Counted from the first letter of the stretch, positions 18,340 to 35,025 are shown. The stretch: 64,000 nt of DNA from Candidatus Poseidoniaceae archaeon (GCA_943788655.1 CALSRB010000002.1:395081-459080), one strand, 5' to 3'. A program made the numbers and translations. The notes: generated by a model from the sequence alone, not told the origin.

Positions 18340-18356
18340 GCAAAAATTGCTGAACA

Positions 18357-18506: not shown

Positions 18507-18600
18507 GACCAAGCGACAAACTCCCCCTATTTAATCACAACCGAGCAGGACAATGTGGGTCTGTGCACCATTTCCATAGGATTCAAATCTTACCAACCTG

Positions 18601-19407
18601 ATGCAAAGCAGTGTTGAAAGCCCACGGCCCACTGGGCAAAGCATGCGTGTGATGCGACTACCTGGCATTCACCACGACTCAAATGTCGTCGTGGTCACTG
18701 GCTCTGCAGGTTCGCTGCTGATCAACGCTGGAACCTCTTGGTATCAGTCGCTTCAAGTCGAGCGAGTCAAAGGCCTGCTGGGCGACGAAGTGATGCTCGA
18801 CCGAATCCTCCTCACGAGCAAGCGTTACCCATGTTCAGGGGGGGCCAAACACCTTTCCGAGATGTTTGAAAATTGCCCAGTTCATGTGCATGAAGAAGGG
18901 CAAGCTGCACTTGAAACTGGTGACTTTTTCTCGACATGGGCAAATCGATTTGACTCTGACATGCCCCCGATTGGTGCCGAGCCATGTGCGAGTGGTGAAG
19001 TGTTTGCATTGGGTGATGGCGAAGTCGAGGCAATTCATCTACCGGGTTGCTCTGCCGACGAAATTGGGTATTGGATTAAAGATCAGTCAATGATGGTTCT
19101 TGGATGCACCCTTCCAAGAGCAGACCGGCCCGCTCGGTGGGATTTGCCAGGCGGCTGCTTACCAGATTTGATTGAAAGTTTAGAACGGATCCAAAAGCGA
19201 AAACCATCGGCCATTGTACCGATGCAAGGACCAGCAATCAAAGGAAAAAAGCATGTCCAAGAGGTCCTTGACCAGCACCTCAAGTTCCTCCGTGGATGCC
19301 TTGAGAGGGAGGGGGCAATCCCAAAGTCGTGGGGGCGGCCCGCACAAACCGCCATGTGGCATACGTCCCATCCGCCATGGCCGTTAAATGAAAAAGAAGC
19401 AGTCTAG
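18601..19407 (+). CDS. Hypothetical protein (possibly a degenerate metallo-beta-lactamase-fold protein)
   Basis: ORF of 268 aa; VVVVTGSAGSLLINAG...ILLTSKRYPCSGGAKHL resembles an MBL-fold core lacking the HxHxDH motif; weak. Confidence 0.3.
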   Translation: MQSSVESPRPTGQSMRVMRLPGIHHDSNVVVVTGSAGSLLINAGTSWYQSLQVERVKGLLGDEVMLDRILLTSKRYPCSGGAKHLSEMFENCPVHVHEEGQAALETGDFFSTWANRFDSDMPPIGAEPCASGEVFALGDGEVEAIHLPGCSADEIGYWIKDQSMMVLGCTLPRADRPARWDLPGGCLPDLIESLERIQKRKPSAIVPMQGPAIKGKKHVQEVLDQHLKFLRGCLEREGAIPKSWGRPAQTAMWHTSHPPWPLNEKEAV

Positions 19408-20051
19408 GCAACAACTGGAAGATCAAGCATCAATGGTTGAGGTGCATCACCGCTTCGCTGCTGGGATTCTAGAATTTTGGCCCGTCGATTTACTCGTTGC
19501 TGCGCTTTTTCAGCAAACGGTTGTGTTCCATCGATGTTCATCGTTTGTGCACCGTCCATCGAGTAAGTCGCTCGGTGCCACCCACTCTGGATGTGGATGA
19601 TGTTGTTATGCAAGCGAAGGCTCGAAACCGGTCCGTCATATGTGAACAACTTCACGCCTCGACTTGGGACATTTGGCCCGACCATCCACACTTGACCTGC
19701 TTGGGTTGCCACAAGAAAGGAGGTCTCACTTGGAGATGCACTGCACATCGATCGAACAACGCCCCCTTCGACCGTAAATTTGTCAACCAAGTCCAAGAGC
19801 GGTAAGGTGAGGAACGTTACGCCACCTTGGGCATCGCCAATGATGGCGGTCTCGATGCGATTTGAAGGACCTTTGACAACCAACATGACTGTGGCGATAG
19901 CGTCTAATTTTATCCTTCGATTGATTCCTTTGTGGGGGCGCCATTGCACCAGGCCATCATCCATGGCAACAAGGCATCCATCTGGGGTCACGAGGCTTCG
20001 GACAACAACTCGGTTGTTCATACAACAGAAAGCAGAGCCGGGGGTACACAT
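19404..20051 (-). CDS. Hypothetical protein (beta-rich, possibly propeller-like)
   Basis: 215-aa ORF, natural-looking composition; no motif recognised. Confidence 0.3.
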   Translation of the reverse strand: MCTPGSAFCCMNNRVVVRSLVTPDGCLVAMDDGLVQWRPHKGINRRIKLDAIATVMLVVKGPSNRIETAIIGDAQGGVTFLTLPLLDLVDKFTVEGGVVRSMCSASPSETSFLVATQAGQVWMVGPNVPSRGVKLFTYDGPVSSLRLHNNIIHIQSGWHRATYSMDGAQTMNIDGTQPFAEKAQQRVNRRAKILESQQRSGDAPQPLMLDLPVVA

Positions 20052-20088
20052 TCATTTCCGAGACCCCTCGGATAAAACTGAAAGTGAA

Positions 20089-20367
20089 TCAGTAGGAATC
20101 TTCAGACTTACTGTCTTTCTTCCACTTGCGATAGCAAGACTTGCAGACACGGACTCGGCCTTTGCGTTGGGTGTAACCGCTCTCGCCCCACACATCGATC
20201 GCATTGTCGATGGAGAGGGAGCGTCCGCCGAAGGATTTGTCAGCGAAATTGTCACAGGTGTTGACACCACATGGAATCTCGCCTTCTTTTTTCGTTTTCT
20301 TACTGGTCGACTCGTTGGTTTCACCAGCGTCTGCCTTGTGCTTGCGTGCCTTTGCTTTGAAGCCCAT
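20089..20367 (-). CDS. Lysine-rich small zinc-finger protein (hypothetical)
   Basis: MGFKAKARKHK... basic N-terminus, Cys pairs (CGVNTC ... CKSC). Preferred over the overlapping Arg/Ser-rich plus-strand ORF 19780..20430. Confidence 0.3.
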   Translation of the reverse strand: MGFKAKARKHKADAGETNESTSKKTKKEGEIPCGVNTCDNFADKSFGGRSLSIDNAIDVWGESGYTQRKGRVRVCKSCYRKWKKDSKSEDSY

Positions 20368-20418
20368 GGGCCGAAGGACCTGTGCCCGATTCAAGAAGGT
20401 TACCACGGAAGTGGTGCT

Positions 20419-21432
20419 TCACTGTTCTGATACGTACCCGAGTTGGCTGAGCAAACCATCGATGAGACGGAGCAATCCACGGAGGGTTACTTCGGACACA
20501 TTGGCGACGCCACAGACTTCAGATTGAGTGCGTGGGGAACCGGATTCTGAGGATGCCTTGTAGATCAGCGCTGCTGCAACGCCCATTGGTTTCTTTCCTT
20601 GCCAAATATCTTCATGAGGTTGGATGGCATTCCACAAGTGGCCCACTTGGATGTGGGTGTTTGGCGGGAGTTGCAAATCAGAGATGAACTTGTCAAAATA
20701 CTGGTCTGGGGAGGAAATCTTGTGAAGATTGAGCCTGCGAGAAACTTGACGAATCAATCGTGACAATTCCTTTTCGGTTACGTCGAACGACCGAGCAATG
20801 TCAGGAATTTGCCTCGGGAGGTTCTCCTGGCGTGCCACCAAGTAAGCGCATGCTGCGGTTACGCCCGCAATTGAGCGGCCTGTGACGAAGCCTTCGCCGG
20901 ACAATCGACGATAGAGGCGAGCTGCTTCTTCTTGCAAGGGCTTTGGAAGTCCTGAGTTGTCTCGAATGAATTGGTTTGCCCTGACGAGGTTGCGCTCGCG
21001 ACTCTTCCGTGTTTTGGAACGTTCGTCGATCACTCGACGGCGACGCCACTCACGGCGTGCTTGGGAGGAGATCCCGTGACGGCCAGCAGACCCGGTGTTG
21101 AGGTCGCGGACATCAATGGTAGTGTTGAGGCCCTTGTCTGCGAGGGTGTAGGTGAGCGGTTGGCCGACTCGAGAGCGGTCTTGGCTACGGTCACGGTTTG
21201 TCCATTCTGCTCCGGGATCGATTACGTTCTCTTCAACGACGAGACCGCAGGAGTTGCATGTGATTTCACCTCGGCTGTCATCCATCTGCCAGTCAACGAC
21301 GCCGCACTCTTCGCATGGCCTTGTGTGACCCTCGAGCGTTCGTCTGATTTGATGGCTGCTGTCTGCTGCCCCCTGGGAGGTCCGTGAGGTCGTGTTCATG
21401 CTGCCGTTCTGCGCTTGTGTGTTTTGCTTCAT
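20419..21432 (-). CDS. tfb: Transcription initiation factor TFB (TFIIB homolog)
   Basis: N-terminal Zn ribbon CEECGVVDWQMDDSRGEITCNSCG, B-linker, two cyclin-fold repeats; extended linker insertion. Confidence 0.85.
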   Translation of the reverse strand: MKQNTQAQNGSMNTTSRTSQGAADSSHQIRRTLEGHTRPCEECGVVDWQMDDSRGEITCNSCGLVVEENVIDPGAEWTNRDRSQDRSRVGQPLTYTLADKGLNTTIDVRDLNTGSAGRHGISSQARREWRRRRVIDERSKTRKSRERNLVRANQFIRDNSGLPKPLQEEAARLYRRLSGEGFVTGRSIAGVTAACAYLVARQENLPRQIPDIARSFDVTEKELSRLIRQVSRRLNLHKISSPDQYFDKFISDLQLPPNTHIQVGHLWNAIQPHEDIWQGKKPMGVAAALIYKASSESGSPRTQSEVCGVANVSEVTLRGLLRLIDGLLSQLGYVSEQ

Positions 21433-21680
21433 CTTCTCAACTCCTTGTTCAGTAGTTGAGAACCTTTCTATTTAAAACCCTGTGTGGCGATGCATGTCAG
21501 TGGTTGCATGACGCTCGTAGGATAGACGGTGTGTGTTGGGTTCTCGCTAAGTAATTTTCAATCACGCTCAAGTGAATATAAACTGTTGTTTGGAAAACCA
21601 GAATCCATGGAAACCCTAGTCCAAAACTCAGGCAAGAGTTCAAAGACGGTACGCGGTGACATCCGAGCGAGGAGAACACA

Positions 21681-22985
21681 ATGCCAGCAACCGTCGTTCT
21701 AGGTGCGCAATGGGGAGATGAAGGAAAAGGGAAGTTGGTTGACCGGATTGCCGAACAGGCGACATGGGTTGCTCGGTTCCAGGGCGGAAACAACGCCGGT
21801 CACACTGTCGTTCTTGGCGATCAGGTACTCAAATTTCACCTCCTACCGTCCGGTATCACTCGCAAAGAGTGCAACCTCATACTCGGGGACGGCATGGTCA
21901 TTGACCCTTGGGTCTTGGATAGAGAACTCAATGGATGGAACGACTCAACAGGCGAGGATCCTCGCGGCGAGCGGTTGTTCATCAGCGAGCGAGCACACAT
22001 CATTCTCCCCTACCACTGCATTCTTGACGGGCAAGACAAGAAAATTGGGACCACCGGAAGAGGCATCGGCCCGACTTACGCCGACAAGATAAACAGAATT
22101 GGATTGAGATTTGGCGATCTCTCAGAAGTCGACGGTGATAATGACTGGATGGAAGCAACCACTGCTCGAATGAACGCTCGCCTTGAGGCAGCGGGGTGTG
22201 AGGACCGAATCACCGCATCCAAACTCGCAGAAGACATTGCATGGATTCATTCAACGTACGTCACCTGCATAGCCAACACCGGCCTCATGCTCGACAATGC
22301 CCTCAAACTCGGGGAACACGTGATCCTTGAAGGAGCACAAGGTTGCTTGCTCGATATCGACCAAGGCACCTTCCCCTACGTCACCTCCTCAGTCACCTCA
22401 CGAGGCAATGCTGGGCACGGAGCAGGCATCCACCCTGGACACGTTAACGATGTCATTGGAATCACAAAAGCCTACATCACCCGCGTAGGACACGGAGCAA
22501 TGCCAACAGAACTCGAAGACGAAGTAGGTGACCACCTTGGGACCATCGGCCACGAATTTGGAACAACCACAGGGCGAAAGCGACGGTGTGGTTGGTTTGA
22601 CGCGGTGGTCATGCGCCATGCCAACCGAGTCAACGGGTTCACCGGCTTGGCATTGACGAAGTTGGATGTGCTTGGCGGGCTTGATGAACTGAAAATATGC
22701 GTTGCCTACGAACTCGACGGGAAAGAAATTCTCGAAATGCCGGCCAGTGCCACAGCGCTCGAACGATGTAAGCCAATCTACATCTCCATGCCAGGTTTCC
22801 CAGGGCATTCACTACAAGAGTGGCTTGGAATTGCAAAGAAGGCGAATAAAGACGGTGCGGGCTATTCTACATTGCCAGCAGCAGCCCAATTGTACATTAA
22901 GAAAATCGAAGCGTTGGTTGGCGTACCATGCACAAGTGTGGGCGTTGGACCTGATCGTGACGCAACAATCGACATGGTCAACTGA
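21681..22985 (+). CDS. purA: Adenylosuccinate synthetase
   Basis: QWGDEGKGK P-loop, GGNNAGHT, TTGRGIGP, GTTTGRKRRCGWFD: all canonical PurA motifs. Confidence 0.92.
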   Translation: MPATVVLGAQWGDEGKGKLVDRIAEQATWVARFQGGNNAGHTVVLGDQVLKFHLLPSGITRKECNLILGDGMVIDPWVLDRELNGWNDSTGEDPRGERLFISERAHIILPYHCILDGQDKKIGTTGRGIGPTYADKINRIGLRFGDLSEVDGDNDWMEATTARMNARLEAAGCEDRITASKLAEDIAWIHSTYVTCIANTGLMLDNALKLGEHVILEGAQGCLLDIDQGTFPYVTSSVTSRGNAGHGAGIHPGHVNDVIGITKAYITRVGHGAMPTELEDEVGDHLGTIGHEFGTTTGRKRRCGWFDAVVMRHANRVNGFTGLALTKLDVLGGLDELKICVAYELDGKEILEMPASATALERCKPIYISMPGFPGHSLQEWLGIAKKANKDGAGYSTLPAAAQLYIKKIEALVGVPCTSVGVGPDRDATIDMVN

Positions 22986-23049
22986 GGATTCATTCCAGCC
23001 ATTTCAAGGTGAAGACTCAAAAAGGTGAGGCTCAACCGTTGCTTTACAG

Positions 23050-23125
23050 GGGCGTTTAGCTCAGTTGGAAGAGTGCTTGGTTTGCAACCAAGATGTCGTG
23101 GGTTCAAATCCCACAACGTCCACCA
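23050..23125 (+). tRNA. tRNA-Ala(UGC), CCA encoded
   Basis: Hand-folded cloverleaf: acceptor GGGCGUU/AACGUCC with the G3:U70 Ala identity pair, anticodon loop UUUGCAA, T-loop GGGUUCAAAUCCCAC. Confidence 0.9.
23107..23122 (+). repeat. attL-like direct repeat (tRNA-Ala 3' end)
   Basis: aatcccacaacgtcca, identical to 29319-29334. Confidence 0.7.
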
Positions 23126-23490
23126 CCCTCGTCAAAGAGTCCGAAACCAGTAGGGTTTGGACTCATAAATGTACGAACCCTCAGTTTTGACCTCAATCAA
23201 ATGCGAGTCTCCCTTTACGAAAGGGGTGGGAAGCAATTGAAATTGTCCGTACGGAACTTGCGAGATTCCCGGTTTTAACTCTTGGAATCAGTAAGATCTG
23301 AGTTAAAATCACCGTTAATGAAGAGTTTGATTTAGTCAGCGAGTTGCGAGTTTTTTAATGATGAAACGCTGCTTTCATGCATAAAATTGATGAGTTCAAA
23401 ATGCCAATACCTTTCCAATCAATCTGCATTCCCAAAACAAATGATTCATTGGGATAATTATATACATAATTGTATTAATCAAGTTGCTAT

Positions 23491-24198
23491 ATGGACATAC
23501 ACATCCCGGCAGGTTATGATTCGTTAAACAGGCCACTTACTGCTTTGGAGAGTTCAACTTTACTTGGACTTTCCGAATTCACAAAGCAGAATCTACCATA
23601 TTTTTCTAAAATCAAAAAAGGGAAAATACTGATGGCTGTAGGTCTAGGCTTTTTCTTGATTGGCTTGATATATTATGCCGTTTTATTAGTTTCGTTGGTA
23701 ATTTTGGGAGGAGGTTTCTATGTCTGGAAAACAGCAAAATCGACACCAGTGGCTTTTCCGGAACTTTTTGTATTAGAACACTCCTCAACAATATACAAAG
23801 GAAAGCCACTAATCGTTTCCGGATTGGAAGAGAGTAAATCGAACTATGAAATTGACTCACTCTATGAAGAGTATCCAAAACATAACCCTACATTAGAGGA
23901 AAATGAATCACTCTTGTATGTTGAACCCGGAGACAACCCTAAGCATTCGCTTAACACCATTAACGAGTTTTACTCATTACTCTCAAGTTATCACTCGAAG
24001 TTATCGAATGTAGGGAAGTATAATTTCAGCTTAAATTTCCTTTCAAGTTCCCAAGCATCGGCTCTCGATGAATTAAACTATTCATTTGATGGCCCTGATT
24101 GGTTTTTACAGGAATATCTAATTGAATCTAAATCAAATGACCACGATTTGATTTCGGAAAATGTAGCAATTCTGGACTATTTTGGACGATATTCTTGA
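23491..24198 (+). CDS. Islet protein A: membrane protein (TM hairpin) with a S/N/Y-rich soluble C-terminal domain
   Basis: Hydrophobic 31-aa stretch MAVGLGFFLIGLIYYAVLLVSLVILGGGFYV; first gene of a tightly packed/overlapping plus-strand operon. Confidence 0.5.
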   Translation: MDIHIPAGYDSLNRPLTALESSTLLGLSEFTKQNLPYFSKIKKGKILMAVGLGFFLIGLIYYAVLLVSLVILGGGFYVWKTAKSTPVAFPELFVLEHSSTIYKGKPLIVSGLEESKSNYEIDSLYEEYPKHNPTLEENESLLYVEPGDNPKHSLNTINEFYSLLSSYHSKLSNVGKYNFSLNFLSSSQASALDELNYSFDGPDWFLQEYLIESKSNDHDLISENVAILDYFGRYS

Positions 24199-25474
24199 GT
24201 CGAACATAGAGGTTCTTACTAGATTCCTTAAACACTTTGAGGATGAATATGCGGGGTACGAAAACTGGCTCAAGGAACTCGAACACATCGCAAATCAAAG
24301 TTCAGAAGGCGTTCTTGAAAGCATGGTTTTGACATACTCGCATATCAATGATGCATCAGGTGAGGCATCAGCACTTTTGCTAGAATCTGTAGATCATAAA
24401 ATCCAAGAAAATACTAGGAAATTAGAATTCCAAGCAAAACAAAAAATGGACGAATTGGAAGCAAAAATGAGTGATATGCAGGACAAAATCATGGAGCGTA
24501 AAGATGAACTAAAGTCTGCAATCTCATCACAGAATCAAATTGTAAACAACCTGGAGAAAGAAGCAATTAGCGCCCAATCTGATCTAACTGGGACATCATC
24601 TATGATTTCAATGGAATTGCCTTATGCAACCGTCGGCGGGGGTGGCGGAAACATTGGTCCAAACGGAGGAAGAGTTAGTGGAATTTCATCCGGGATTGGA
24701 TATCATACAGTTCACCTTCCAAACCCTGAATTCTCTGCTAAGCAACAGGCACATAGAATCATTTCGACCTTGGGAAGGATTGAACAGGAAAAACTGAAAA
24801 CTTTGAAGGACCAACTTACCTCGACTGATAATTTGGTTGAGCAGCGCCGAGAAGCGATTCTTTCAGAACAAGAAAGCCGTAAAAAAGAGTATCAAGAGAG
24901 AATGGAAGATGAACGTAAGCAGCTATCCAAACATTCCCTTGCTGTCAAGGCTCTGCATGAAGATATTTTAGAAAATCCTATTCAGATTGACGTCGATGAT
25001 TTGACGAGACTGGTTAATCGATCTTGGCTACAGCCGGCTAAAATTGTTTATGGACATCTGAATAGTATCGAATCAAAATTTCAAGAATGCACTGAGATAT
25101 TTCGCTGGTTTAAGGAAAGATCTGACTTGATTTCATCCAGTATTTTAGCAGGCTCTCCGAATCAACTTGGGACTAATGGTCGAATTTTCTCCCACTGGTT
25201 GGTAAGAGACCACGAAGTCTTAGATGTGATTAAAATTAAATCTGAGATCTCACTAGATAAACCAATAAATGTAGACTCTGTACCTTCCAAAAAGAGTCAA
25301 ATTCTTTCTAACCCAAATACCAACCCAAATTTCCCTTCAATGAGAAGGAAAATGAACAGCCAATCCTTAGCGGTTTTAATTCAACATCTAGCTCATCAAG
25401 GCAGTATAGATTCAAAACTGGCGAAGAAGTTATCGGATCTTTGTAATAAAAATGTAAACCATATCATGAGGTGA
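24182..25474 (+). CDS. Islet protein B: 430-aa coiled-coil protein with a central poly-Gly loop
   Basis: Heptad-rich E/K/Q segments flank GGGGGNIGPNGGRVSGISSGIGY. Overlaps gene A by 17 nt and gene C by 4 nt (translational coupling). Confidence 0.5.
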   Translation: MDDILESNIEVLTRFLKHFEDEYAGYENWLKELEHIANQSSEGVLESMVLTYSHINDASGEASALLLESVDHKIQENTRKLEFQAKQKMDELEAKMSDMQDKIMERKDELKSAISSQNQIVNNLEKEAISAQSDLTGTSSMISMELPYATVGGGGGNIGPNGGRVSGISSGIGYHTVHLPNPEFSAKQQAHRIISTLGRIEQEKLKTLKDQLTSTDNLVEQRREAILSEQESRKKEYQERMEDERKQLSKHSLAVKALHEDILENPIQIDVDDLTRLVNRSWLQPAKIVYGHLNSIESKFQECTEIFRWFKERSDLISSSILAGSPNQLGTNGRIFSHWLVRDHEVLDVIKIKSEISLDKPINVDSVPSKKSQILSNPNTNPNFPSMRRKMNSQSLAVLIQHLAHQGSIDSKLAKKLSDLCNKNVNHIMR

Positions 25475-26286
25475 TTTTAATGTCAGATGAATCAAGATCA
25501 GATGCAGCAATATTGGCCTCATTGAGTATGGAGGAGAGCCGAGGTTTAGTTACTCTCAGAGCGGCTCAAGAACGTCGTGAAGGAATTCTTCCAGCAGAAT
25601 CGAATCAAGAGAATCGTAACGTACGTATTGAATCATGTTGTTTTGTTGATGGTCATATTTTCGGTAAAGATGTTGAATTGATGGATTGTGACATTCGTAC
25701 TCTTTCAACCCGAGCGAGCGAAAACCTCCCTGGTACGCAAATAAATGGTGGAATCAATGCCTTCGGTGATGTGAAAATTGGAGTTGGTTGTGTCGTTGGT
25801 TCAGGAGATGGAGGGGGTGTTCTTGCTGGTGGAAATGTAAACATTAGTTCAGCTATTCCAATCGTTGAAAACGGACCATCTCGAACAATTATCATTGGCA
25901 GTGTCAGTGGCGAGCACATAGTGATTGGAGATGGGGCAATCATTTTAGGGGCAGTTATCGGTCAGAAATCAGTACAGATTGGTAGCGGTGTTACAATTCG
26001 AGATCATGTATTCACACCTGCTTTGGATGCTGGTGATGGAAATTTATTCGGAGGCTTAATTGTAGGTGACTCAGTGAGAATGGGAAAACTAAACACAATA
26101 GCATCAGGTAGAATAATGCTCCCTACTGATGATAATACTGTCAGTATCGAATCTCCAATTCGTTCGCCATATCCTGGGTGTAATAATTGCCAATACGCTG
26201 ATGAAGTTGGGAGGTTCAGACAACGTGCAAGACTACGGCCGTCGTTTATCTTGCCACCTTTTCAAATCTGTGGAATTAGAAGATGA
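25471..26286 (+). CDS. Islet protein C: beta-helix repeat protein, bactofilin-like
   Basis: Approximately 120-aa run of short G/V/I-rich turns (GDVKIGVGCVVGSGDGGGVLAGGNVNISSA...IIIGSVSGEHIVIGDGAIILGAVIGQKSVQIGSGVTI) typical of bactofilin/left-handed beta-helix repeats; the C-terminal 55 aa are of uncertain reality. Confidence 0.4.
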   Translation: MILMSDESRSDAAILASLSMEESRGLVTLRAAQERREGILPAESNQENRNVRIESCCFVDGHIFGKDVELMDCDIRTLSTRASENLPGTQINGGINAFGDVKIGVGCVVGSGDGGGVLAGGNVNISSAIPIVENGPSRTIIIGSVSGEHIVIGDGAIILGAVIGQKSVQIGSGVTIRDHVFTPALDAGDGNLFGGLIVGDSVRMGKLNTIASGRIMLPTDDNTVSIESPIRSPYPGCNNCQYADEVGRFRQRARLRPSFILPPFQICGIRR

Positions 26287-26503
26287 ATCTCTTAAGATTA
26301 CTGAAGGGATGTGCACTGAATGGACTCCGTTTGATTTGGATTCCAAAGATGCCCAGTTTACGATAACAGATAATCTAGTCACAGATGTCCCATGGAATTT
26401 GAAATGTGTTACTAATTGGCCGACTGATTCTTTGAACCTAGAGTATGATAGAGACCAAATTGCAATTTGGGAAATGACTGCTGAGTCGCTAGGGGGTTTG
26501 TAG
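26129..26503 (+). CDS. Islet small ORF D (start uncertain; possibly 26309 MCTEW...)
   Basis: In the same frame as, and immediately upstream of, gene E. It overlaps the gene C tail, so the true start is likely internal. Confidence 0.2.
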   Translation: MIILSVSNLQFVRHILGVIIANTLMKLGGSDNVQDYGRRLSCHLFKSVELEDESLKITEGMCTEWTPFDLDSKDAQFTITDNLVTDVPWNLKCVTNWPTDSLNLEYDRDQIAIWEMTAESLGGL

Positions 26504-27112
26504 ATGCCTGAATGCTGTGCGATTCACTTTACTGGATGGTACTGTCCAAAGTGTGGTTTACCCATTTCGTTTGCAGATCACGGTGGAAGTACACCGATTT
26601 CAATTGGAAATATTTCTACTAAAAACGTCACAATTAATCAACAACTTGTTCAAGGTGATTTAATTCAAGCAGGCGGCATAAAGTCAACTGGACGAGGCAA
26701 TGAAGTTCCAGAGTCGTTCGCTTTACCACTTCCGCCTCCTCCGTTTGAGGAAGATGATTTGCCCTTGCCACCCCCTCCTGCGGAAGATGATTTGCCCTTG
26801 CCACCCCCTCCTGCGGAAGATGATTTGCCCTTGCCACCCCCTCCTGCGGAAAATGATTTACCCCTGCCCCCTCTACCTGCGGAAGATGATTTGCCCTTGC
26901 CACCCCCTCCTGCGATTGAAGAACTGCCTTCACCCCCTTCTTTAGTAGAAGATCCAGAGTCTACAGTGAAGAATGTCGATAATTCGGAGGAGATTTGGCC
27001 GCCAACGGATGCAGAAATTATCACTGACGAATTAGGCGTTGAATGGTTTGAGGAAAATGGAAAGTGGTATTTCAAGAACCCTGAAGATAACTGGGAACTC
27101 TTCCAAACTTGA
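26504..27112 (+). CDS. Islet protein E: N-terminal zinc ribbon, five EDDLPLPPPPA polyproline repeats, C-terminal WW-like motif (EWFEENGKWYFKNPEDNWELF)
   Basis: CC-x2-H-x6-C-x2-C at residues 4-17; 5 x 33-bp DNA repeats; the C-terminal motif is shared with chromosomal giant surface-protein tails (see findings). Confidence 0.6.
   Translation: MPECCAIHFTGWYCPKCGLPISFADHGGSTPISIGNISTKNVTINQQLVQGDLIQAGGIKSTGRGNEVPESFALPLPPPPFEEDDLPLPPPPAEDDLPLPPPPAEDDLPLPPPPAENDLPLPPLPAEDDLPLPPPPAIEELPSPPSLVEDPESTVKNVDNSEEIWPPTDAEIITDELGVEWFEENGKWYFKNPEDNWELFQT
26751..26915 (+). repeat. 5 x 33-bp tandem repeat (gaagatgatttgcccttgccaccccctcctgcg) encoding EDDLPLPPPPA; the fourth copy diverged (ENDLPLPPLPA)
   Basis: Direct inspection; coding, not CRISPR (no spacers; repeats are contiguous and in-frame). 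Confidence 0.9.
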
Positions 27113-27149
27113 AAGCTGGTTTGGTTACTTTCTAGCGGGATTTCCACCA

Positions 27150-28619
27150 TCAATTATACGCTTTACATTGGTCACAATACCATCTTCGATATTGAGAAAT
27201 GTACCGGGATACGCCACCGCATAACTTGCACGATTGCTTTTCTGGGGGCGATGGTTGTCCTGGATTATTTTTCGTTGCATCCCCAGAAATCAGGTCACCT
27301 TGAACAAACGTCATGTCACCGTTAGCCTCCCCTGCCCTGTCTAAGAATTGTTGGGCAGTCTGTTGCTTAAGCAGTTCTTTTTGTTGCTGCGTTTCTTGTT
27401 CAATATTTGTTCTCTGGGTAATAGCCTGCTGTTCGATGAGAGTCTGAAGCATTCCCGCAATATCTGATGAACCTTGCTTTCCAGAACTTATAGCCTTCAT
27501 TGCCTGCTGCATGAGTTCGGCCTGATTGCTTGCATCTATCTGGGTTCGGTCAAGTTGCTGTGTTTTCATCGTTCTTGATTTATCCATTTGAGATGACTGT
27601 AGTTCATCCCGCATTTGTTGTTGTTGAATCAGGAATTCTCGTTCCTGTCCAGTTGTATCTCCACTTTTGAAGCGACGTTCAAGTTCCTTATCGGCAACTT
27701 CTTGTTCCATCAGCATTTTTTGTCTTTTCGTATTTAGATCGTGGGTATGAGTACGAACTCTTTGCTCAAATTGAGATTCAAATTCGAGTTGCTTCATTTT
27801 GATTTCAGAGAGTTGATGTTGAATCGCAACGTCATCCTCTCCTTTGGCAATGACAAGTTGTGACTCAGCCTCGAGTTCCAGTTCTTTGTGAATCAGTTGG
27901 TATTTATCCTCGAGAGCAAAAATCATTGCATCTTGCTCAATTTGTTCAACACCCCTTTCTAAATTCAACTGACCCCGCATTTGTTGCACTTTGTCGTGTG
28001 CATTTGGACTAAAAACGATTTGATTTTGACGGAATGTCAACCCAAATTCTGCATGCGTTCTTCTCATGTTTGTGAGTAATTTATCCCGAATGTTCATTTG
28101 GATTTCTTCTGATGTACGAATCTCAGATAAATTATGTTTGCCAATTTCATCTTGCAGCACTTTGTTTCCGACTTCATCAATTAACATGGAAGCAAGTGTA
28201 GATCGTGTTAGATACGCTGAATTCTCATTGTCCAGAGGGTTTAGTGGTACATTTGCGAATAGGTTCACTAATCTTGGAGCATCTGTTAATTGAATTTGCA
28301 TTTCCAAGGTTACCGCACCCTTCACTTCCATAGCGTCGAGTGATCTGCAGTCGAATTCATAATGAAGTTTAAACGGGGTGTTGATTGTAAAAATGAACTT
28401 CTCTTCGGGTTTTCTACCAAAAAAGAGTTTTTTACCAATCCCACCAACAATTTTACTCAGCCTCTGTTCCGTGTAGGTGTCTACGATCTTACCGTCTTGC
28501 AATATCGTCAGTGATTCTGTTGATTCCAACACAATATCTCTGGAACGGAAAGACGAAATTGATGCTGTTTGAATTAAGCTTGCGATTGCCTCAGGGTTTG
28601 TTCTCCACTTGTATGTCAT
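27150..28619 (-). CDS. Islet protein F: SPFH/band-7-like N-domain + long Q/E-rich coiled coil + C-terminal zinc ribbon
   Basis: HNLSEIRTSEEIQMNIRDKLLTNMRRTHAEFGLTFRQNQIV resembles the SPFH core; C-terminal CKLCGGVSRYISQYRRWYCDQCKAY; no TM. Confidence 0.45.
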   Translation of the reverse strand: MTYKWRTNPEAIASLIQTASISSFRSRDIVLESTESLTILQDGKIVDTYTEQRLSKIVGGIGKKLFFGRKPEEKFIFTINTPFKLHYEFDCRSLDAMEVKGAVTLEMQIQLTDAPRLVNLFANVPLNPLDNENSAYLTRSTLASMLIDEVGNKVLQDEIGKHNLSEIRTSEEIQMNIRDKLLTNMRRTHAEFGLTFRQNQIVFSPNAHDKVQQMRGQLNLERGVEQIEQDAMIFALEDKYQLIHKELELEAESQLVIAKGEDDVAIQHQLSEIKMKQLEFESQFEQRVRTHTHDLNTKRQKMLMEQEVADKELERRFKSGDTTGQEREFLIQQQQMRDELQSSQMDKSRTMKTQQLDRTQIDASNQAELMQQAMKAISSGKQGSSDIAGMLQTLIEQQAITQRTNIEQETQQQKELLKQQTAQQFLDRAGEANGDMTFVQGDLISGDATKNNPGQPSPPEKQSCKLCGGVSRYISQYRRWYCDQCKAYN

Positions 28620-28623
28620 TAAA

Positions 28624-29241
28624 TCACCTTAAATTAAAATAAATCGTTACTCCAATTGCGAGTAAGGATATTAATAACGATGCAATCTGGACCCACTTAA
28701 TTGACTTCTTCGATTTCTGACCTTGCACCACATCAAGCGGAACGCCATTGATGATTGCCCTTCTTGCGTTGTATTTGCTTCTGAATTGAGTAATCTGAGA
28801 GATGATTGCCTCAATTCCTGAGTAAGATTCTCGATCAGAAGAGTGCGATGTTTCAGAAATGGAGACCTGAATTTCTTTTACAATTTCAATTATATCCAAA
28901 TCTATCTGAACCAAATTCTCAATCGTTTTTTTATTGATTGATGATAATATGTCAATTTTCTTTGCCATAGTCCCTGTCGGAGATGTCCGCAACTCCGATT
29001 CAATCACATCAATTTCTGTCAAGAGTGTATCAAAATCAGCTTTCTTCTGCTTGTCATTTGAAGTAACGCGTAAAGACTCAATTGTTTTTCGGCAATTTGT
29101 CCACTCCAGACGGATATATTCTCGTAATTCCTTATCATCATCATTTGATGGTTTTTCAGAATATCCCATGTAAGTTGGAATAATTTTGGAAAGTTGCAAA
29201 AGCGCACTGGCGTTTGCTGCGGAGGGGATTGGTGGTTGCAC
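28624..29241 (-). CDS. Islet protein G: tail-anchored coiled-coil protein (single C-terminal TM)
   Basis: C-terminal WVQIASLLISLLAIGVTIYF; helical N-region; 4 nt downstream of the gene F stop codon (co-oriented pair). Confidence 0.45.
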   Translation of the reverse strand: MQPPIPSAANASALLQLSKIIPTYMGYSEKPSNDDDKELREYIRLEWTNCRKTIESLRVTSNDKQKKADFDTLLTEIDVIESELRTSPTGTMAKKIDILSSINKKTIENLVQIDLDIIEIVKEIQVSISETSHSSDRESYSGIEAIISQITQFRSKYNARRAIINGVPLDVVQGQKSKKSIKWVQIASLLISLLAIGVTIYFNLR

Positions 29242-29318
29242 ATGCGTGTTACACCCTGAAAGTATAACATCTTTTGGCCCTCATAAACGATATTTTGTAC
29301 CTCAATCACATGTACTTT

Positions 29319-29334
29319 AATCCCACAACGTCCA
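29319..29334 (+). repeat. attR-like direct repeat (copy of tRNA-Ala 3' end)
   Basis: aatcccacaacgtcca; GC content rises immediately downstream. Confidence 0.7.
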
Positions 29335-29491
29335 TTTCCCTGCTAAAACGGTGGACCCCACGTACGTTATTGATTCTCATAAAGCCCACTTCCATCAGAC
29401 AGAATCTAGATGAGGGCGTTGATGTTAGGCGCATGCACTGGACATCGAAACTGCAGCAAACTTAGGCGAGGCACTCAGCGGTCTTGCCATC

Positions 29492-29983
29492 ATGGCCACG
29501 CTGCTGTTCGGTCTTCGTCAAGTAATGGAAGTCAATCGCAATCGCCGATTTGAAATCTCCCAAACGATTGCCACATCATTGGAAAACCCCCTCGTTCAAC
29601 GAGGATTTGCCACCTTTGGGAGCGTCATCACAAAAGATTCCACGCTCGAAGATTTGATGGGCCTTACGAGGGAGCAAAAAGATGCAACCAATGCGGTCAT
29701 CGTTCTCATGTCGAACCATGCCTTGATGACGTTTCACAGGAATCTTTCATTTGACATCGTTTTTTCCTTCTACAAAGGATACCTCTCACTCATCGGACCT
29801 AGCATGCGACGGATGATGGAGATGATTGAATTTGGTTATTCCATGCACGAAGGGAGCAGTGTAACCAAAGAAGAGGGTATGGGCACGTTCCATTGGGTGT
29901 TTTGGTTACTTGACAAACTCGAGGCACATGAGAATTCATCGCAACTAAAACCCCACATCAACCAAACCGATTGGCAACCATGA
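29492..29983 (+). CDS. Hypothetical protein (possible N-terminal membrane anchor if the start is upstream at a non-ATG codon)
   Basis: 163-aa ORF outside the islet, host-like GC. Confidence 0.3.
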   Translation: MATLLFGLRQVMEVNRNRRFEISQTIATSLENPLVQRGFATFGSVITKDSTLEDLMGLTREQKDATNAVIVLMSNHALMTFHRNLSFDIVFSFYKGYLSLIGPSMRRMMEMIEFGYSMHEGSSVTKEEGMGTFHWVFWLLDKLEAHENSSQLKPHINQTDWQP

Positions 29984-30395
29984 ACGCATGACTTATTCAA
30001 GAGATCGAACTCTTTCCAAGCATAGCACCAAACGACTATGAGGCGTTGGTTTGGATTGCTTGGGGATTGGTACATTCCTTTTCTCAATACTGCTCCTCAT
30101 CGACACGAATGTACTCAAATCCGTTTCAGGGAATAAACGGTGCGACTGCGAAGAACAGAAGCAAAAGAAACGGCGAGAGCAACCTTGAACATCGATTCAA
30201 AGATACGAACGAATCCTGCTAAATCTGTAAAAGGAAGACTGAGAGGCATATCGGGGCCAGATGAAAATTCAAAATATCTATGTGTTCTTTCCGTTTCCCG
30301 ACACCTTGTGACCCCAGAACATACAAGAGAATATATTACAAGACCACTTGACCGAAGTCATACGACCTTAAACCGTCGTTATTCGGGGAATCATT

Positions 30396-32027
30396 ATGGT
30401 CAAATCCAATATTGAATCTTTGGTCGAAACAATCACAGAGGAGGTTAAGTCGAAATTCACGAGAACCATTGGATTGGTCGGTGTGATTATCATCTCACTC
30501 TCCGCCATGCTTCCTGGAATCTTTGTGACCCCAACTTTTGCAGCAGAGATCATGGGGCCTGGAATTTGGCTTGCCTATTTGGTCGCAGCTTCTGTGGTCC
30601 TTCCCGGTGCTCTGTCCAAGTCTGAGCTATCATCGGGAATGCCGTCGAGTGGAGGGTCGTATGTCTACTTAGAGCGCACGTATGGCCCGCTAATCGGGAC
30701 AATCAGCGGACTGGGTTTGTGGGCATCTTTCCTCCTTAAATCGGCCTTTTCCTTGATTGGCTTTTCTGCATACTTCATCGTTGTTACGACCTACTTCGAC
30801 ATAAAGATGGAATTGATGACACTCTCAATGAGCGCACTGGTGCTAATCGTTGTTGTGAACCTACTTGGCGTGTCGAAAGTCAAAGCAGTTCAAGCACCGA
30901 TTGTGTTCATGACCGTGGCTCTGCTTACGGTCATTTGCATTGCCTCATTCTTCACTGACGGCTTCGATGCCAGCATCCCCATCGATGGAGCGATGAATGC
31001 GAATGGGTGGGCACTTGCTGAAGCAGCAGCCTTTGTCTTCGTTGCCTATGCCGGCGTTACCAAGGTGGCTGCGATCGGTGGGGAAGTGAAAAATCCTGAG
31101 AAAAATTTGCCAGCTGGAATATTGCTTTCGTTGCTGATTGCAACAGTGCTCTACTCTGTAATTTCGTTCTTGATGATGGCAGCCATTCCAGGCGATGGAT
31201 GGTGGATCAGCCAAGATGGCAAGGTTGTGGAGAACCCAATTTGGGTCTTCGCTGAAACCGTTGCAGGATCGAAATTCGGTGTCGTTGCCGCTGCCCTTTC
31301 TGTTCTAACGATGATTTCGATGGCGCTTGCCGGTATTCTCGCTTCCTCAAGATTCCTGTTTGCAATGGCTCGTGACAACCTTCTTCCGCAAGCACTCGAG
31401 GAAGTGAATATAAAATTCGAGACCCCTCATTGGCCCATTCTCTTGACTGGAATCGCCATGGCGTTGGCAATTTTCTTTGTGCCTCTCAAGGACGTTGTCA
31501 AACTCGCTTCAGGTTTCAAAATCATGATTTTCATGATGATCAACTCATGCGTTATTATCCTCCGGCAAACGAGCAAAGAACATGATTGGAACCCATCCTA
31601 CAACAGTCCAATGTACCCCTACATCCAGTTGTGGGGAATCGTGGCGGGCGCAGTTCTCATCGCATTCATCGGCAACAAGGCCTTCATCGGTGCAGGTGCT
31701 GCAGTTGTTGCAGGAGCAGCCACATACTTCCTCTACGGCAAAAAGCACGCAGTTCTACAAACGACGCCAGTCGCTTCCTTCCGCAAGCAATTCCAATCGC
31801 CTTCTCCGACCGAGCACGAACGCCGAATAACTGCGTTCCATGCTGCTGACATGGGAGGTAAGAACCATTTGACCGTACGAGAATTCCAACGTGCTCTGAA
31901 AGCGCTCGGCCTCAGTTACACCTCCGATGAATCCCGTGCGATTTTCCATGCCGCAGATGCCGATTCGAACGGTGTAATTGACATTGATGAATTCTTCGAG
32001 TTCATTGAAACCACCAGCGAAGAATAG
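30396..32027 (+). CDS. APC-family amino acid permease fused to a C-terminal EF-hand pair
   Basis: 12 TM helices with APC-like composition; C-terminal DADSNGVIDIDEFFEF canonical EF-hand loop plus an upstream degenerate one. Confidence 0.7.
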   Translation: MVKSNIESLVETITEEVKSKFTRTIGLVGVIIISLSAMLPGIFVTPTFAAEIMGPGIWLAYLVAASVVLPGALSKSELSSGMPSSGGSYVYLERTYGPLIGTISGLGLWASFLLKSAFSLIGFSAYFIVVTTYFDIKMELMTLSMSALVLIVVVNLLGVSKVKAVQAPIVFMTVALLTVICIASFFTDGFDASIPIDGAMNANGWALAEAAAFVFVAYAGVTKVAAIGGEVKNPEKNLPAGILLSLLIATVLYSVISFLMMAAIPGDGWWISQDGKVVENPIWVFAETVAGSKFGVVAAALSVLTMISMALAGILASSRFLFAMARDNLLPQALEEVNIKFETPHWPILLTGIAMALAIFFVPLKDVVKLASGFKIMIFMMINSCVIILRQTSKEHDWNPSYNSPMYPYIQLWGIVAGAVLIAFIGNKAFIGAGAAVVAGAATYFLYGKKHAVLQTTPVASFRKQFQSPSPTEHERRITAFHAADMGGKNHLTVREFQRALKALGLSYTSDESRAIFHAADADSNGVIDIDEFFEFIETTSEE

Positions 32028-32349
32028 AGCCACCCCACATCCCTGAATGTATCAGCGCCTTAGTGGGCTTGGGCGTAGGCTTCACCAATGCCGAATTCTG
32101 AAGCATTTACCACTGCGCAGAGGAAGATGAAAGCGGCGTTATTGGCATTGATAAATTCCTCCTCACCGGTGAAACAATCGACGAAACATTGGTTTCAGAA
32201 GACGAAGAAGCCGAGTTCGATCCACTTCATGAGTGGATTGACAACCTCTGAACGAAAAGTATCGAACCACAACGGACTGGTCCAACAAACCATTGCTGCG
32301 AGAAGATACTCGATGCCGAGTGGTTCCTCTTGAGGGTAGAGGGTGGCCA

Positions 32350-35016
32350 TCACTTCACCTTCGTCCACGAACCATCTGGGCCAACATTCCAGAATTGTAT
32401 CGCTTCGCTGACATCGACATACCATCCGGATTCGCCTTGCACGGATCCAGGGGCGGCCTGCATCACACCGATTTCTGCTGCTTGAGCAGCCAGGCTTGTT
32501 TTCAGTTCAGGACTGAGGTCGATCATTGTGTCAGGTGAAGGCGTAGGATTGAGTGATTCTCCGGATGATGCGTCTGTCTCATCAACCTCATCTTCTGCGT
32601 CCTCATGCTCTTCTTCGAAGGCGTCTTCGACCCAGTCTTCCCCTTCTTCGGCATTGTTCACACGGCGTACGAGCACGACCAATGTAACCAAAATAAGACC
32701 AAGCAGGAACGAGCCAAGCGTCATAGCAGTGTTCGTCGAACCAACTGCTCCACCAAGAAGAACTGGTTCAACATCAAAGAATCGTTGCGTGATAAGTCCA
32801 TTCCAGTTCACAGTACAGGAACGGTCATCGCCAGCAGAACTGACTTTGACTTCCCATGTATCGCCTGTGACGTACTTCGCTTTTCCAGCACTGCAAGAAA
32901 TCGATGTGTTTTCAGGCTCGACAATCACGAGGTTGTCGTATTCATCAACGCCTTGCAGTTGCAGAAGCACCGTATCGCCCTGTGCAATATCAAAGCCGTC
33001 AAGTTCGGCCACCACCCGGACAGGCGTCCCCGGCAGGATGAGTAAGTCGATGGTGTGAACCGCATCATCAGAAGTCAACATCAATTGGTAAGAACCTGAT
33101 GTGCGTCCTGTGAAGTCCCAATATCCATTTCCTGACGAAGATGCTTCAATCACACCAAATGATGAATCCAATTCAGTGCTTACATTTGTTGCCGGCGCCA
33201 TGTTACCATGGGCATCGATCACTTGAATGTACAATTCAGAAGGTTGGCCGGCATTGACCGTGAGCCCGAGTTCCTGATCTGTGACCAAATTACGTGCTTC
33301 TCCGGCGACCACCGTGAGGCGAATTGTGGCAAAGATACCATCTGCGTTTGCACGGATTTCATGACCACCGACACTGGTTGGCATCCATAGGTAGTCTGAA
33401 AGAAGAAGTTCAACGGTTGCGTCCACCCCATCAACAGTCCAATTCAAACCGACTGGATCGAGTTGATTTCCAAAACCATCGAAGAACTGTGGGTCGAGAT
33501 CAAGTGGTACATCCGAGGCAAGAACTTCGTTCGCCCCGTTTAGTTCAATAAAAGCCAGTTGCCCAGTGAGGGTGCTTTGCTGAAAGGTGGGTTCGAAGCG
33601 AATGTTGGTGGAAGCATCGTACCAAGACCCTTCGATTCGCCAAATCTCGAGAAGGCGTGGTGAAAGGGTCGCATAACCTTCGTAGGATTGGAAATGACTT
33701 GCGTTTCCTCCGAGCAATGCCATGGACCCATTGACCAGCCATTTGTTCCCCATTGCATCCACTGCCCAGAACGAGAGGGTGCTTTGCTGTCCGACACGCA
33801 GGGTTGAGGGTTCGAGTTCAAGAACGGCGTCGATTGCTGTTCCATGATGAATTTCGACATCAAGAGACGAAGCCACGCCTTCATCGATGACATTCAATTG
33901 ATGAGACCCCATGGTGCCTGGCGTCCAATAGACTCGGCCATCTTCGAACGACAATCCGCCGCTTGAGGTCGTGAAGTTCTCCAAAGGTGGTGTGAAGGAA
34001 CCTGTGTAACCATTGGCATCGGTGCGCATGGTGATGAGTTCATAGGTCTCTCCAGCGGTGTAGAAGCTGTGGTCGCCAACAATCGACAATTGCGAGAGGG
34101 ATGCATCAGCGGGCACGACTCGGATGGTTGAGGTCCCAGTCACATTTCCAGCGCTGACGGTGAGGTTCCAGACCCCAGGATACGTCGCCGTGTATCGCCC
34201 AACGGGACTCATGGTTCCGTTTTCTGAGGACCATGTCTTGTAACCTGCATCGGTATCATTCATTTCAAATCCATACTGATCGATGAGTTTGACAGTCAGA
34301 TAGACAGATTCTCCGCTGCGAAGCTGGAGATTGTCTTCAAATTGGAATTCATAGGGGTTGCCTGCGACAACTTCCACCATGCGATTGTCTTCCATTTGGT
34401 TCAAACGAGCCCTGACTTGAACATCGCCAAGTTCGGTCGGGGTCCACTGGGGTGCTCCCACGCCAGCATAGACGCCGTCGACATCCCAGACAACATCAGT
34501 TGCTGGTTTTGAATTTCCACGCGCATCGATTAGGTTTGCTTCGAGGGTGTTTGCCACCTTCGCTTGTGCTTCGGAGGTCACGATGCTCAGGCTCTGTCCG
34601 ACACCGGCTTGAACAGTGATGTTGAACACATCCGTCAGGTTTCCGCTAAAGGCTTCGATGCTGATGGTCCCTGCGCTCCATGGATAGAAGGTTCCATCAC
34701 TGGTGATGGTTCCGTTCGAACAGGCCCAGTTCACTTCTTCAGAAACGACGTTGTTAACGGCGTCATACAGCGTTGCTTCAAACATCACAACCTCATCCGC
34801 CGTTAGTGAATACACTGGTGATGTAATGACAACCCTCGTTGCCGATGATGAACTGTGGAAAGGAGATGGTTGATCTCCATCCAATGATGATGCAGACGGC
34901 AGGGATTGCCAAGCTTGTGTGCAGAACAAAGCCACAAGAAGCAGGGTGGCCAGTGGCCGCATCCCCTGAAACGTAGGTCTCCTCATGCCGCTCCCTCTCA
35001 CATTAACCCGTATCAA
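32350..35016 (-). CDS. Giant cell-surface protein (888 aa): signal peptide, beta-rich repeats, C-terminal TM anchor, acidic cytoplasmic tail ending GWYVDVSEAIQFWNVGPDGSWTKVK
   Basis: Signal MRPLATLLLVALFCTQAWQ; TM LGSFLLGLILVTLVVLV followed by RRVNN; tail rich in E/D. Confidence 0.8.
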   Translation of the reverse strand: MIRVNVRGSGMRRPTFQGMRPLATLLLVALFCTQAWQSLPSASSLDGDQPSPFHSSSSATRVVITSPVYSLTADEVVMFEATLYDAVNNVVSEEVNWACSNGTITSDGTFYPWSAGTISIEAFSGNLTDVFNITVQAGVGQSLSIVTSEAQAKVANTLEANLIDARGNSKPATDVVWDVDGVYAGVGAPQWTPTELGDVQVRARLNQMEDNRMVEVVAGNPYEFQFEDNLQLRSGESVYLTVKLIDQYGFEMNDTDAGYKTWSSENGTMSPVGRYTATYPGVWNLTVSAGNVTGTSTIRVVPADASLSQLSIVGDHSFYTAGETYELITMRTDANGYTGSFTPPLENFTTSSGGLSFEDGRVYWTPGTMGSHQLNVIDEGVASSLDVEIHHGTAIDAVLELEPSTLRVGQQSTLSFWAVDAMGNKWLVNGSMALLGGNASHFQSYEGYATLSPRLLEIWRIEGSWYDASTNIRFEPTFQQSTLTGQLAFIELNGANEVLASDVPLDLDPQFFDGFGNQLDPVGLNWTVDGVDATVELLLSDYLWMPTSVGGHEIRANADGIFATIRLTVVAGEARNLVTDQELGLTVNAGQPSELYIQVIDAHGNMAPATNVSTELDSSFGVIEASSSGNGYWDFTGRTSGSYQLMLTSDDAVHTIDLLILPGTPVRVVAELDGFDIAQGDTVLLQLQGVDEYDNLVIVEPENTSISCSAGKAKYVTGDTWEVKVSSAGDDRSCTVNWNGLITQRFFDVEPVLLGGAVGSTNTAMTLGSFLLGLILVTLVVLVRRVNNAEEGEDWVEDAFEEEHEDAEDEVDETDASSGESLNPTPSPDTMIDLSPELKTSLAAQAAEIGVMQAAPGSVQGESGWYVDVSEAIQFWNVGPDGSWTKVK

Positions 35017-35025
35017 AGCCGCGCC

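Follow-up and report, generated by a model that had tools for sequence, protein, structure and literature searches.

Few archaea are as abundant in the surface ocean as the Poseidoniales. The order has not been brought into culture, and to our knowledge very little is known about how they exchange genes and handle viruses. Integrated mobile elements of archaea, cryptic ones included, have reportedly been sorted into classes in a survey. Tycheposons of Prochlorococcus are islands that target transfer RNA (tRNA) genes by means of a tyrosine recombinase, and they include integrase-less remnants bounded by partial tRNAs (bioRxiv 10.1101/2020.12.28.424599). In the Poseidoniales, Charybdis elements are circles of ~4.6 kb with ~10 small genes, a double Greek-key hallmark protein and thousands of IMG/VR contigs; an integrase has placed some of them beside tRNA genes, and an association with membranes or vesicles has been proposed (bioRxiv 10.1101/2025.08.03.668216). 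With respect to proteins, the cytosolic SPFH protein YdjI (SamI) of the B. subtilis pspA-ydjGHI operon is recruited by the membrane proteins YdjG/H (PMC8581546; bioRxiv 10.64898/2026.02.06.704340), and SPFH-coiled-coil-zinc-ribbon proteins occur in archaeal “Meth_adaptin” ESCRT loci (PMC10936438). Here we describe a five-gene islet (genes AB, CD, E, F and G) at a tRNA-Ala gene of a Candidatus Poseidoniaceae archaeon, contained in a 64,000-nucleotide stretch (GCA_943788655.1 CALSRB010000002.1:395081-459080) that we refer to as the window. A tRNA-integrating islet and an SPFH scaffold are both of known kinds; the set of partner proteins is new. We consider it probable, although well short of certain, that the islet is a non-autonomous copy of a family of small Poseidoniales elements that integrate at tRNA-Ala, and that its cargo is a membrane-proximal cytoplasmic scaffold.

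Like tycheposons and cryptic archaeal elements, the islet lies at the 3′ end of a tRNA gene with a partial tRNA copy at its far end, is polymorphic in marine picoplankton, occurs in integrase-less form beside integrase-bearing copies, and has a cargo unrelated to replication or virions. The differences are the archaeal host, the much smaller size of the family (6.2–7.6 kb), a replication module that is present in no copy, and the fact that the five-gene cargo is the constant part and the integrase the rare part. With Charybdis the islet shares its host order, its small size and the lack of known hallmark genes. However, its 6.2 kb and five large genes set it apart from the Charybdis description, and neither F, AB nor the CD profile found a relative in 2.9 million IMG/VR contigs.

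Precise insertion at a tRNA-Ala gene

Occupied and empty sites were found in public assemblies by exact matches to the proteins encoded at its flanks, adenylosuccinate synthetase to the left and a 163-amino-acid (aa) open reading frame (ORF) on the right. Contigs L036–L038 and L040, which belong to the same population, carry the islet as it is in the window. In L034/L024 (a 156-kb contig), in L039 and in seven similar places, the right flank directly follows tRNA-Ala. BLAST aligned window positions 13681–23122 and 29319–37197 as joined sequence in L034 and L039, at 99.8–99.9% identity, and the alignments of the left and right flanks in the empty sites overlap by exactly the 16-bp core AATCCCACAACGTCCA. 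Both states were obtained from the same samples (the runs behind ERZ10646226 and ERZ10646538; ERR9769278; ERR9769375). Further contigs are broken at the core (L004 covers 23087–29344, and L029, L033, L042 and L043 end there), as happens when a mixed population splits the assembly graph. Empty sites at this level of flank identity imply that the islet was inserted precisely, with duplication of the target, and that the population is polymorphic for it. Thus, the islet is a precise, site-specific insertion, present in some cells and absent in others. An earlier note on this DNA, made from the window alone, had read the locus as a footprint of site-specific integration and proposed to look for empty tRNA-Ala sites; these exist in conspecific genomes and prove the footprint.

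The core is the last 16 nt of mature tRNA-Ala and is identical in both copies (16/16 bp). Within the 64-kb window it has exactly two matches, even with two mismatches allowed, against a chance expectation of 0.08; the direct repeat that the note had seen around 6.2 kb is therefore a perfect and unique pair in the window. In empty sites the tRNA-Ala gene ends in ...GTCCA (73 nt), and the CCA that follows it at the window copy is supplied by the islet. The guanine-plus-cytosine (GC) content of the 6,196 bp between the repeats (23123–29318) is 0.405, compared with 0.519 for the rest of the window. The GC values of 228 other 6.2-kb segments all lie between 0.504 and 0.535 (standard deviation 0.007), and the tetranucleotide distance from the window mean is 0.036 for the islet and at most 0.013 elsewhere. 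The low GC content claimed at the outset is borne out by this profile, in which the islet is an outlier relative to all 228 segments.

The genes are flanked by two non-coding arms. The left arm occupies the position that holds the integrase gene in the relative L023, contains a TATA-like AT-rich motif ~30 nt upstream of the AB start, and can be aligned by eye, over its first ~45 nt, with the left arm of the L018 copy. In the right arm, GAAAGTATAACATCTTTT lies upstream of G and is conserved in diverged copies, which is consistent with its being probably the archaeal TATA-type promoter of a G-F operon. Rfam searches showed no non-coding RNA in the islet arms or in a ~95-nt sequence that recurs at the flank of other copies.

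Five genes and an integrase-bearing relative

All ORFs that the earlier note had named A to G are present where it placed them, but they correspond to five genes and not seven, because A with B, and C with D, form one intact gene each in every other assembly. The single-base insertions that split them are private to one 661-kb contig, and intact proteins are encoded on dozens of contigs; AB is interrupted by a different frameshift in a second very long contig. The frameshifts of the window copy thus stem either from errors in long-read assembly or from recent damage confined to this contig. The five genes form two convergent operons, AB-CD-E and G-F, in which G lies 4 bp upstream of F, and the AT-rich promoter-like motifs upstream of AB and of G are conserved. 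The coordinates are collected in Table 1.

Table 1. Features of the islet, its junctions and a related flank sequence (window positions unless a contig is named)
Feature	Position	Strand	Basis or remark
tRNA-Ala(TGC), integration target	23050..23125	+	ARAGORN; Rfam 71.7 bits
attL core (attachment site, left), 16-bp AATCCCACAACGTCCA = tRNA 3′ end	23107..23122	+	sequence as read; flank-alignment overlap in empty-site contigs
Left non-coding arm, 368 bp	23123..23490	.	no Rfam family; no integrase remnant by tblastn
Gene AB (A + B of the earlier note)	23491..25474	+	660-aa single ORF in other assemblies; split in the window by a +1 insertion at 24184
Gene CD (C + D of the earlier note)	25471..26503	+	340–343-aa single ORF elsewhere; split in the window by a +1 insertion at 26203
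Gene E, 202 aa	26504..27112	+	ORF call; repeat number varies
Gene F, 489 aa	27150..28619	-	SPFH/Band-7-fold, coiled coil, zinc ribbon
Gene G, 205 aa from GTG or 181 aa from ATG at 29169	28624..29241	-	C-terminal transmembrane segment
Right non-coding arm	29242..29318	.	carries GAAAGTATAACATCTTTT at 29258–29277
attR core (attachment site, right), second copy of the 16-bp tRNA-Ala 3′ end	29319..29334	+	sequence as read; flank-alignment overlap
attL junction			...GGGTTCAAATCCCACAACGTCCACCACCCTCG
attR junction			...GTACTTTAATCCCACAACGTCCATTTCCCTGC
attB junction (empty site)			...GGGTTCAAATCCCACAACGTCCATTTCCCTGC
attP junction (predicted excised form)			...GTACTTTAATCCCACAACGTCCACCACCCTCG
~95-nt flank fragment	L018 3546–3664, 4900–5021; L022 5913–6054; L011 7847–7891; L007 2225–2290		

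In the F protein an SPFH/Band-7-fold domain (aa 1–205) is followed by a coiled coil of ~220 aa and, at the C-terminus, by a zinc ribbon of the form CxxC...CxxC. With the SPFH alpha/beta fold followed by a helical, coiled-coil extension, F is a structural member of the SPFH superfamily. At the sequence level its membership is transitive only: 17 of 52 profile-detected homologs match Band_7 (best 3.6e-9) and 1 matches Band_7_1. A broad profile of the F family retrieved only zinc ribbons. F has no transmembrane (TM) segment and is therefore probably cytosolic. The G protein is helical and has a single C-terminal TM segment (aa 181–204), i.e. it is tail-anchored. AB begins with a TM hairpin at aa ~45–80 and a conserved domain of unknown fold at aa 90–220, followed by a long antiparallel coiled coil, at the tip of which a beta-hairpin surrounds an invariant GGGG loop. 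A fold search with the low-confidence AB model was uninformative and returned only generic coiled-coil hairpins (HlyD, dynein stalk, SMC, prefoldin). Profile searches of the PDB with AB, G and the N-terminal domain of F gave nothing significant.

The core of CD is a left-handed beta-helix (LbH) of hexapeptide-like type according to weak but consistent profile matches (PF25084, 7e-4; Hexapep, 5e-3; eIF2B-epsilon, LpxA and gamma-carbonic anhydrases in the PDB), and its C-terminal domain has four invariant Cys (CxxC...C...C). The earlier description of C as bactofilin-like is not upheld, as the bactofilin family (DUF583, a right-handed beta-helix) was unmatched and the matches are to left-handed hexapeptide folds. 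E starts with an invariant four-Cys zinc ribbon, continues with a variable number of 33-bp repeats of LPLPPPPxED type, and ends in a WW-like motif that is recognised at pattern level only, with no Pfam match. The repeat encoding DDLPLPPPPAE (26746–26914) differs in copy number among contigs that are 99.6–99.8% identical, giving an E of 169, 180, 191 or 202 aa depending on the assembly.

The fold of F, the TM segment of G, the TM hairpin and coiled coil of AB, and the zinc ribbons of CD, E and F agree with the prediction of a membrane and scaffold module. The statement that its proteins have no recognisable homologs was too strong, since F belongs to the SPFH superfamily and each gene has homologs in Poseidoniales metagenomes. 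No ORF of the window islet has a significant match in Pfam, PHROGs, NCBIfam or PADLOC. The same searches found no integrase, Rep, ATPase, capsid or terminase in the islet, as the note had also reported, and a test for a provirus with PHROGs and Pfam gave no capsid, terminase/packaging ATPase or virion hallmark. A recombinase among the five proteins (e.g. F as a large serine recombinase) was rejected, because there was no Resolvase/Recombinase match and F has the SPFH fold. A split integrase of SSV type across the att site was likewise rejected; the circular joint would be just ~460 bp of non-coding sequence with no ORF across the junction. Ten further ORFs of the window, chosen by size, were housekeeping genes or had no Pfam match, and none was an integrase.

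An integrase is present in a relative. A 7,642-bp contig of a Poseidoniales metagenome-assembled genome (MAG) in GTDB (L023/L061) begins inside the 3′ half of tRNA-Ala(GGC) and continues with a 458-aa ORF on the opposite strand and then with the five module genes; its AB is 28% identical to that of the window. The 458-aa ORF matches Pfam Phage_integrase (PF00589) at 29.4 bits (cut-off 27.1) and the phrog_1 integrase at 1.5e-5, contains the motifs HRMR...HGDW...RNY, and gave no homologs in the phage and plasmid collections. The same integrase is encoded on an independent 7,666-bp contig. Judged by these contigs, there is a complete element of ~7.6 kb, composed of a predicted tyrosine integrase and the five genes, which also lies at the 3′ end of a tRNA-Ala gene. 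The family is therefore not intrinsically integrase-less; the term used in the earlier note holds for the window copy and fails for the family. The L066 copy has its genes in the order F, G, AB, CD, E, circularly permuted so that G and AB adjoin each other; excision of the islet as a circle would bring them together in the same way. This points indirectly to a circular ancestor. A helper virus or Charybdis element in IMG/VR with the same att core was considered and rejected: the 16-mer had 10 matches, in unrelated contexts and consistent with chance.

In a separate comparison of L062 (1–461) with L023 (1–1652), the module is 99.4% identical. The integrase and tRNA-Ala(GGC) are present in L023 and L063, and neither is present in L062, where a Tudor-like host gene adjoins the module at a point 81 bp upstream of AB.

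Selection on the module and its possible role

Homologs fall into 31 clusters for CD (35–90% identity), 17 for AB and 9 for F, and essentially all are unnamed or labelled as proteins of Poseidoniales, Euryarchaeota or Thermoplasmatota MAGs. CD occurs in only 2 of 185,579 GTDB species representatives, both of them Poseidoniales. Within this order the module recurs in at least seven genomic contexts, and the order AB-CD-E followed by F-G on the opposite strand persists even where CD identity has dropped to 48%, so that the gene order that the note had proposed to search for does recur in diverged relatives. The ratio of nonsynonymous to synonymous substitution rates (dN/dS) in pairwise comparisons is 0.04–0.13 for all five genes, including the L018/L022 pair, for which dS is unsaturated. 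By this measure the module is under strong purifying selection, in line with the earlier suggestion of a functional module. In the most divergent relatives (L048–50), AB-like, CD-like and short E-like genes are followed by a Sir2-like gene; F and G are not visible in these short contigs.

SPFH proteins form ring- or cage-like oligomers on membranes. By analogy with YdjI/SamI, F would be brought to the cytoplasmic face of the membrane by the tail-anchored G, by the TM hairpin of AB, or by both, and would there assemble, as other SPFH proteins do, into ring- or cage-like oligomers that delimit a patch of membrane. CD (beta-helix and Cys4) and E (zinc ribbon, PPLP-type repeats and WW-like end) could act as zinc-dependent adaptor or cross-linking subunits. 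We infer this scaffold from the oligomerisation habit of SPFH proteins, the recruitment of YdjI/SamI and the archaeal SPFH-zinc-ribbon loci, taken together. The role of the module would then be an accessory function that organises or protects the membrane, with antiviral defence and vesicle formation as the main specific options. The element itself would have entered the tRNA-Ala 3′ end by site-specific recombination, and the site is still polymorphic. Because the integrase is missing here, further movement would need a recombinase acting in trans or homologous recombination in the flanks.

F resembles YdjI and the SPFH proteins of Meth_adaptin loci in that it joins an SPFH domain to a coiled coil, lacks a TM segment and ends in a zinc ribbon. 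The arrangement of a cytosolic SPFH protein encoded with membrane proteins, namely tail-anchored G and the TM-hairpin protein AB, recalls PspA-YdjGHI (SamGHI). However, the PspA/ESCRT-III, Vps4 and NfeD partners of the Psp/Sam and Meth_adaptin loci were not found, AB, CD, E and G have no counterparts there, and the module is mobile. PspA_IM30 and Snf7 did not match any module protein at E<=1, and profiles of AB and G against the PDB gave no PspA, Vipp1 or CHMP chain. Lacking the PspA that defines Psp and Sam systems, the module belongs to neither.

Several observations weigh against the proposal of a mobile scaffold module. On the side of mobility, the integrase is confined to one lineage, and its loss in the window lineage and its gain in the other are both compatible with the data. 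The L023 integrase found no remnant by tblastn in 23123–23490 and nothing in the window as a whole. A scan of one Joint Genome Institute (JGI) metagenome with the G-side junction returned only the attR context and no attP, contigs of ~6 kb showed no terminal overlaps, and clean flanking repeats were not found around L014, L018, L022, L011, L066, L067 and L023. Furthermore, the neighbour of some copies is not a tRNA but a peptidase-gene fragment that recurs. On the side of function, the window copy may be inactive because of its two frameshifts, unless these are assembly errors. The structure model of AB is of low confidence, and F itself reaches no Pfam threshold (Band_7, Band_7_1). Among the module proteins we detected no PspA/ESCRT-III, NfeD, ATPase, nuclease or other effector, and the functional analogy therefore draws on one fold and on the architecture.

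The simplest alternative, that these are ordinary Poseidoniales chromosomal genes with a repeat that arose by chance, draws on the existence of homologs in other Poseidoniales genomes and on nothing more. The empty sites at 99.9% flank identity and a repeat far beyond chance rule it out, and the strongly deviating composition, the differing contexts and the presence of CD in just 2 GTDB species representatives leave it practically no probability. That the islet is a decaying provirus or plasmid remnant whose genes have no function is also very unlikely. The window copy does lack an integrase and has frameshifts at 24184 and 26203, and replication and structural hallmark genes were not found; but the five genes are intact in dozens of other contigs with dN/dS of 0.04–0.13, the att repeats are still perfect, and the frameshifts are private to one long contig, another long contig having a different one. 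For the family as a whole, this explanation is largely refuted. The five genes could alternatively be the transmission apparatus of the element, which would be capsid-less and carried by vesicles, with SPFH and coiled-coil proteins budding the membrane around the excised circle, in the manner of plasmid vesicles or pleolipovirus-like budding. This would account for five genes that form an invariant core among varying integrases and neighbours, for proteins that are all membrane-associated or scaffold-like, and for the circular ancestor implied by the L066 permutation, and small Poseidoniales elements without known hallmark genes have a precedent in Charybdis (bioRxiv 10.1101/2025.08.03.668216). 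Many assemblies also give contigs of about element length (6.0–7.7 kb), although breaks at polymorphic borders explain these equally well. We nevertheless regard it as quite unlikely, given that F, AB and CD are missing from the IMG/VR contigs, that a circular contig or attP junction was not seen, and that the module lacks genes for replication and packaging as well as any signal peptide or spike-like protein, with all large domains predicted to be cytoplasmic.

A new membrane-based antiviral or superinfection-exclusion system is still unlikely, albeit less so than a transmission apparatus. Here AB, CD and E would sense or anchor, an F/G assembly would alter or sacrifice the membrane upon infection, and the module would be cargo hitch-hiking on the islet in a flexible part of the genome. 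Its presence varies within one population at a tRNA hotspot, its GC content is low, giant hypervariable genes for surface proteins are a few kb away, it is strongly selected yet patchily distributed, and its alleles are mosaic in L008 (AB/CD 87.5%, F 99.7%). ZorA of the Zorya anti-phage system has N-terminal TM helices and a very long cytoplasmic coiled coil. AB shares this architecture of N-terminal TM segments and a long cytoplasmic coiled coil, and PADLOC gave sub-threshold matches of AB to the ZorA tail (6e-4 to 0.1) and of G to LeoC (1e-3). However, AB has a two-TM hairpin and not a MotA/ExbB channel, ZorB, ZorC and ZorD are absent, and the matches are confined to the coiled coil. None of 5,027 PADLOC 2.0 models matched significantly, and nothing was obtained for CD, E or F. 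In addition, none of the proteins showed a recognisable nuclease, NADase, protease, ATPase or pore-forming toxin domain, a literature search found no SPFH-based defence system, and known defence genes were not seen as neighbours in the loci examined. We give a similarly low chance to the broader idea that the module is an archaeal membrane machine not described before, around which a separate class of mobile element is built. It would be either the budding or vesicle apparatus of a capsid-less element that has no replication genes, passes between Poseidoniales cells and integrates at tRNA-Ala, or a new membrane-acting antiviral system with no relation to catalogued defence families; if true, it would be a new kind of either.

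A clean insertion that is polymorphic in a population, together with an integrase-bearing relative, provides a concrete att/integrase pair that is testable in vitro. The conserved, strongly selected module of five genes is built around a cytosolic SPFH protein, and its partners resemble nothing characterised. A link between SPFH proteins, zinc-ribbon membrane partners and systems for membrane stress or remodelling is emerging, and the module contributes a mobile example from archaea.

Contexts of other copies and surroundings of the islet

In L018–21 the module lies between a gene for a giant RCC1-repeat protein and GrpE, in L014 ahead of tRNA-Gln and NFACT, and in L067 after Trp dioxygenase; L064 has the module and an extra gene, and in another context the neighbour is an S8 peptidase. 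Poseidoniales MAGs in NCBI or GTDB are the source of L011, L022 and L023. Wherever a locus was profiled, the module had a lower GC content than its flanks. The recurring peptidase-gene fragment is a conserved ~95-nt sequence that abuts L018 (twice), L021, L022, L011–13 and L007 in differing orientations. On its other strand it encodes the C-terminal peptide ...WGVAQGCNCRSILEAIA.LIEAQR.DLA, and in L022 it continues into a subtilase ORF. Its junction with the module, CCCCAGCGTCCA|CTCCCCTC, resembles the tRNA junction CACAACGTCCA|CCACCCTC, and the fragment may be a secondary, recurrent insertion site.

The copies L005 (1–23, 6010–6067), L006 and L007 (1–2296) are 92–99% identical to the window islet. 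Of the tRNA-Ala core, 15 nt are retained at their G end, and their flanks differ from those of the window: one side encodes a Cys-rich surface protein with a WW-like cytoplasmic tail, and the other has a sequence like a tRNA 3′ half, GAAGGCCGGGGGTTCAAATCCCCCAGCCTTTG. The earlier note had linked the module to host surface proteins through a shared motif. Such a motif is present in the flank of one relative (the L007 tail), but not among the surface proteins of the window, where a search for the WW-like motif matched only E itself.

Upstream of AB in L067 (~9480–9790) lies an uncalled zinc-ribbon ORF of ~100 aa whose end, YFCKDCKAYHLT, has the motif that also closes F (RWYCDQCKAYN). In L011 (3883–4066, minus strand) an intron-containing tRNA, with a match like box C/D sR3 in its intron, stands at the edge of the low-GC stretch that includes the module. 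L008 is a mosaic in which the AB/CD part (23583–26848) is 87.5% identical to the window and the F part (26812–28653) 99.7%; at the sequence level this is a sign that variants of the module recombine in the population.

To the right of the islet, positions 29335–30400 (the 163-aa ORF, GC 0.43–0.47) are a second variable spot. The conspecific L035, in which the tRNA site is empty, has a separate indel of ~2 kb at 9570–11575 that encodes a 449-aa MFS/BT1-type transporter. A few kb further right, at 32350–44475 of the window, are giant surface-protein genes of 888 aa and 3149 aa, homologs of which have CBM96 and Disaggr-repeat matches. The called lengths of these genes vary among conspecific contigs, and the islet therefore sits in a flexible region.

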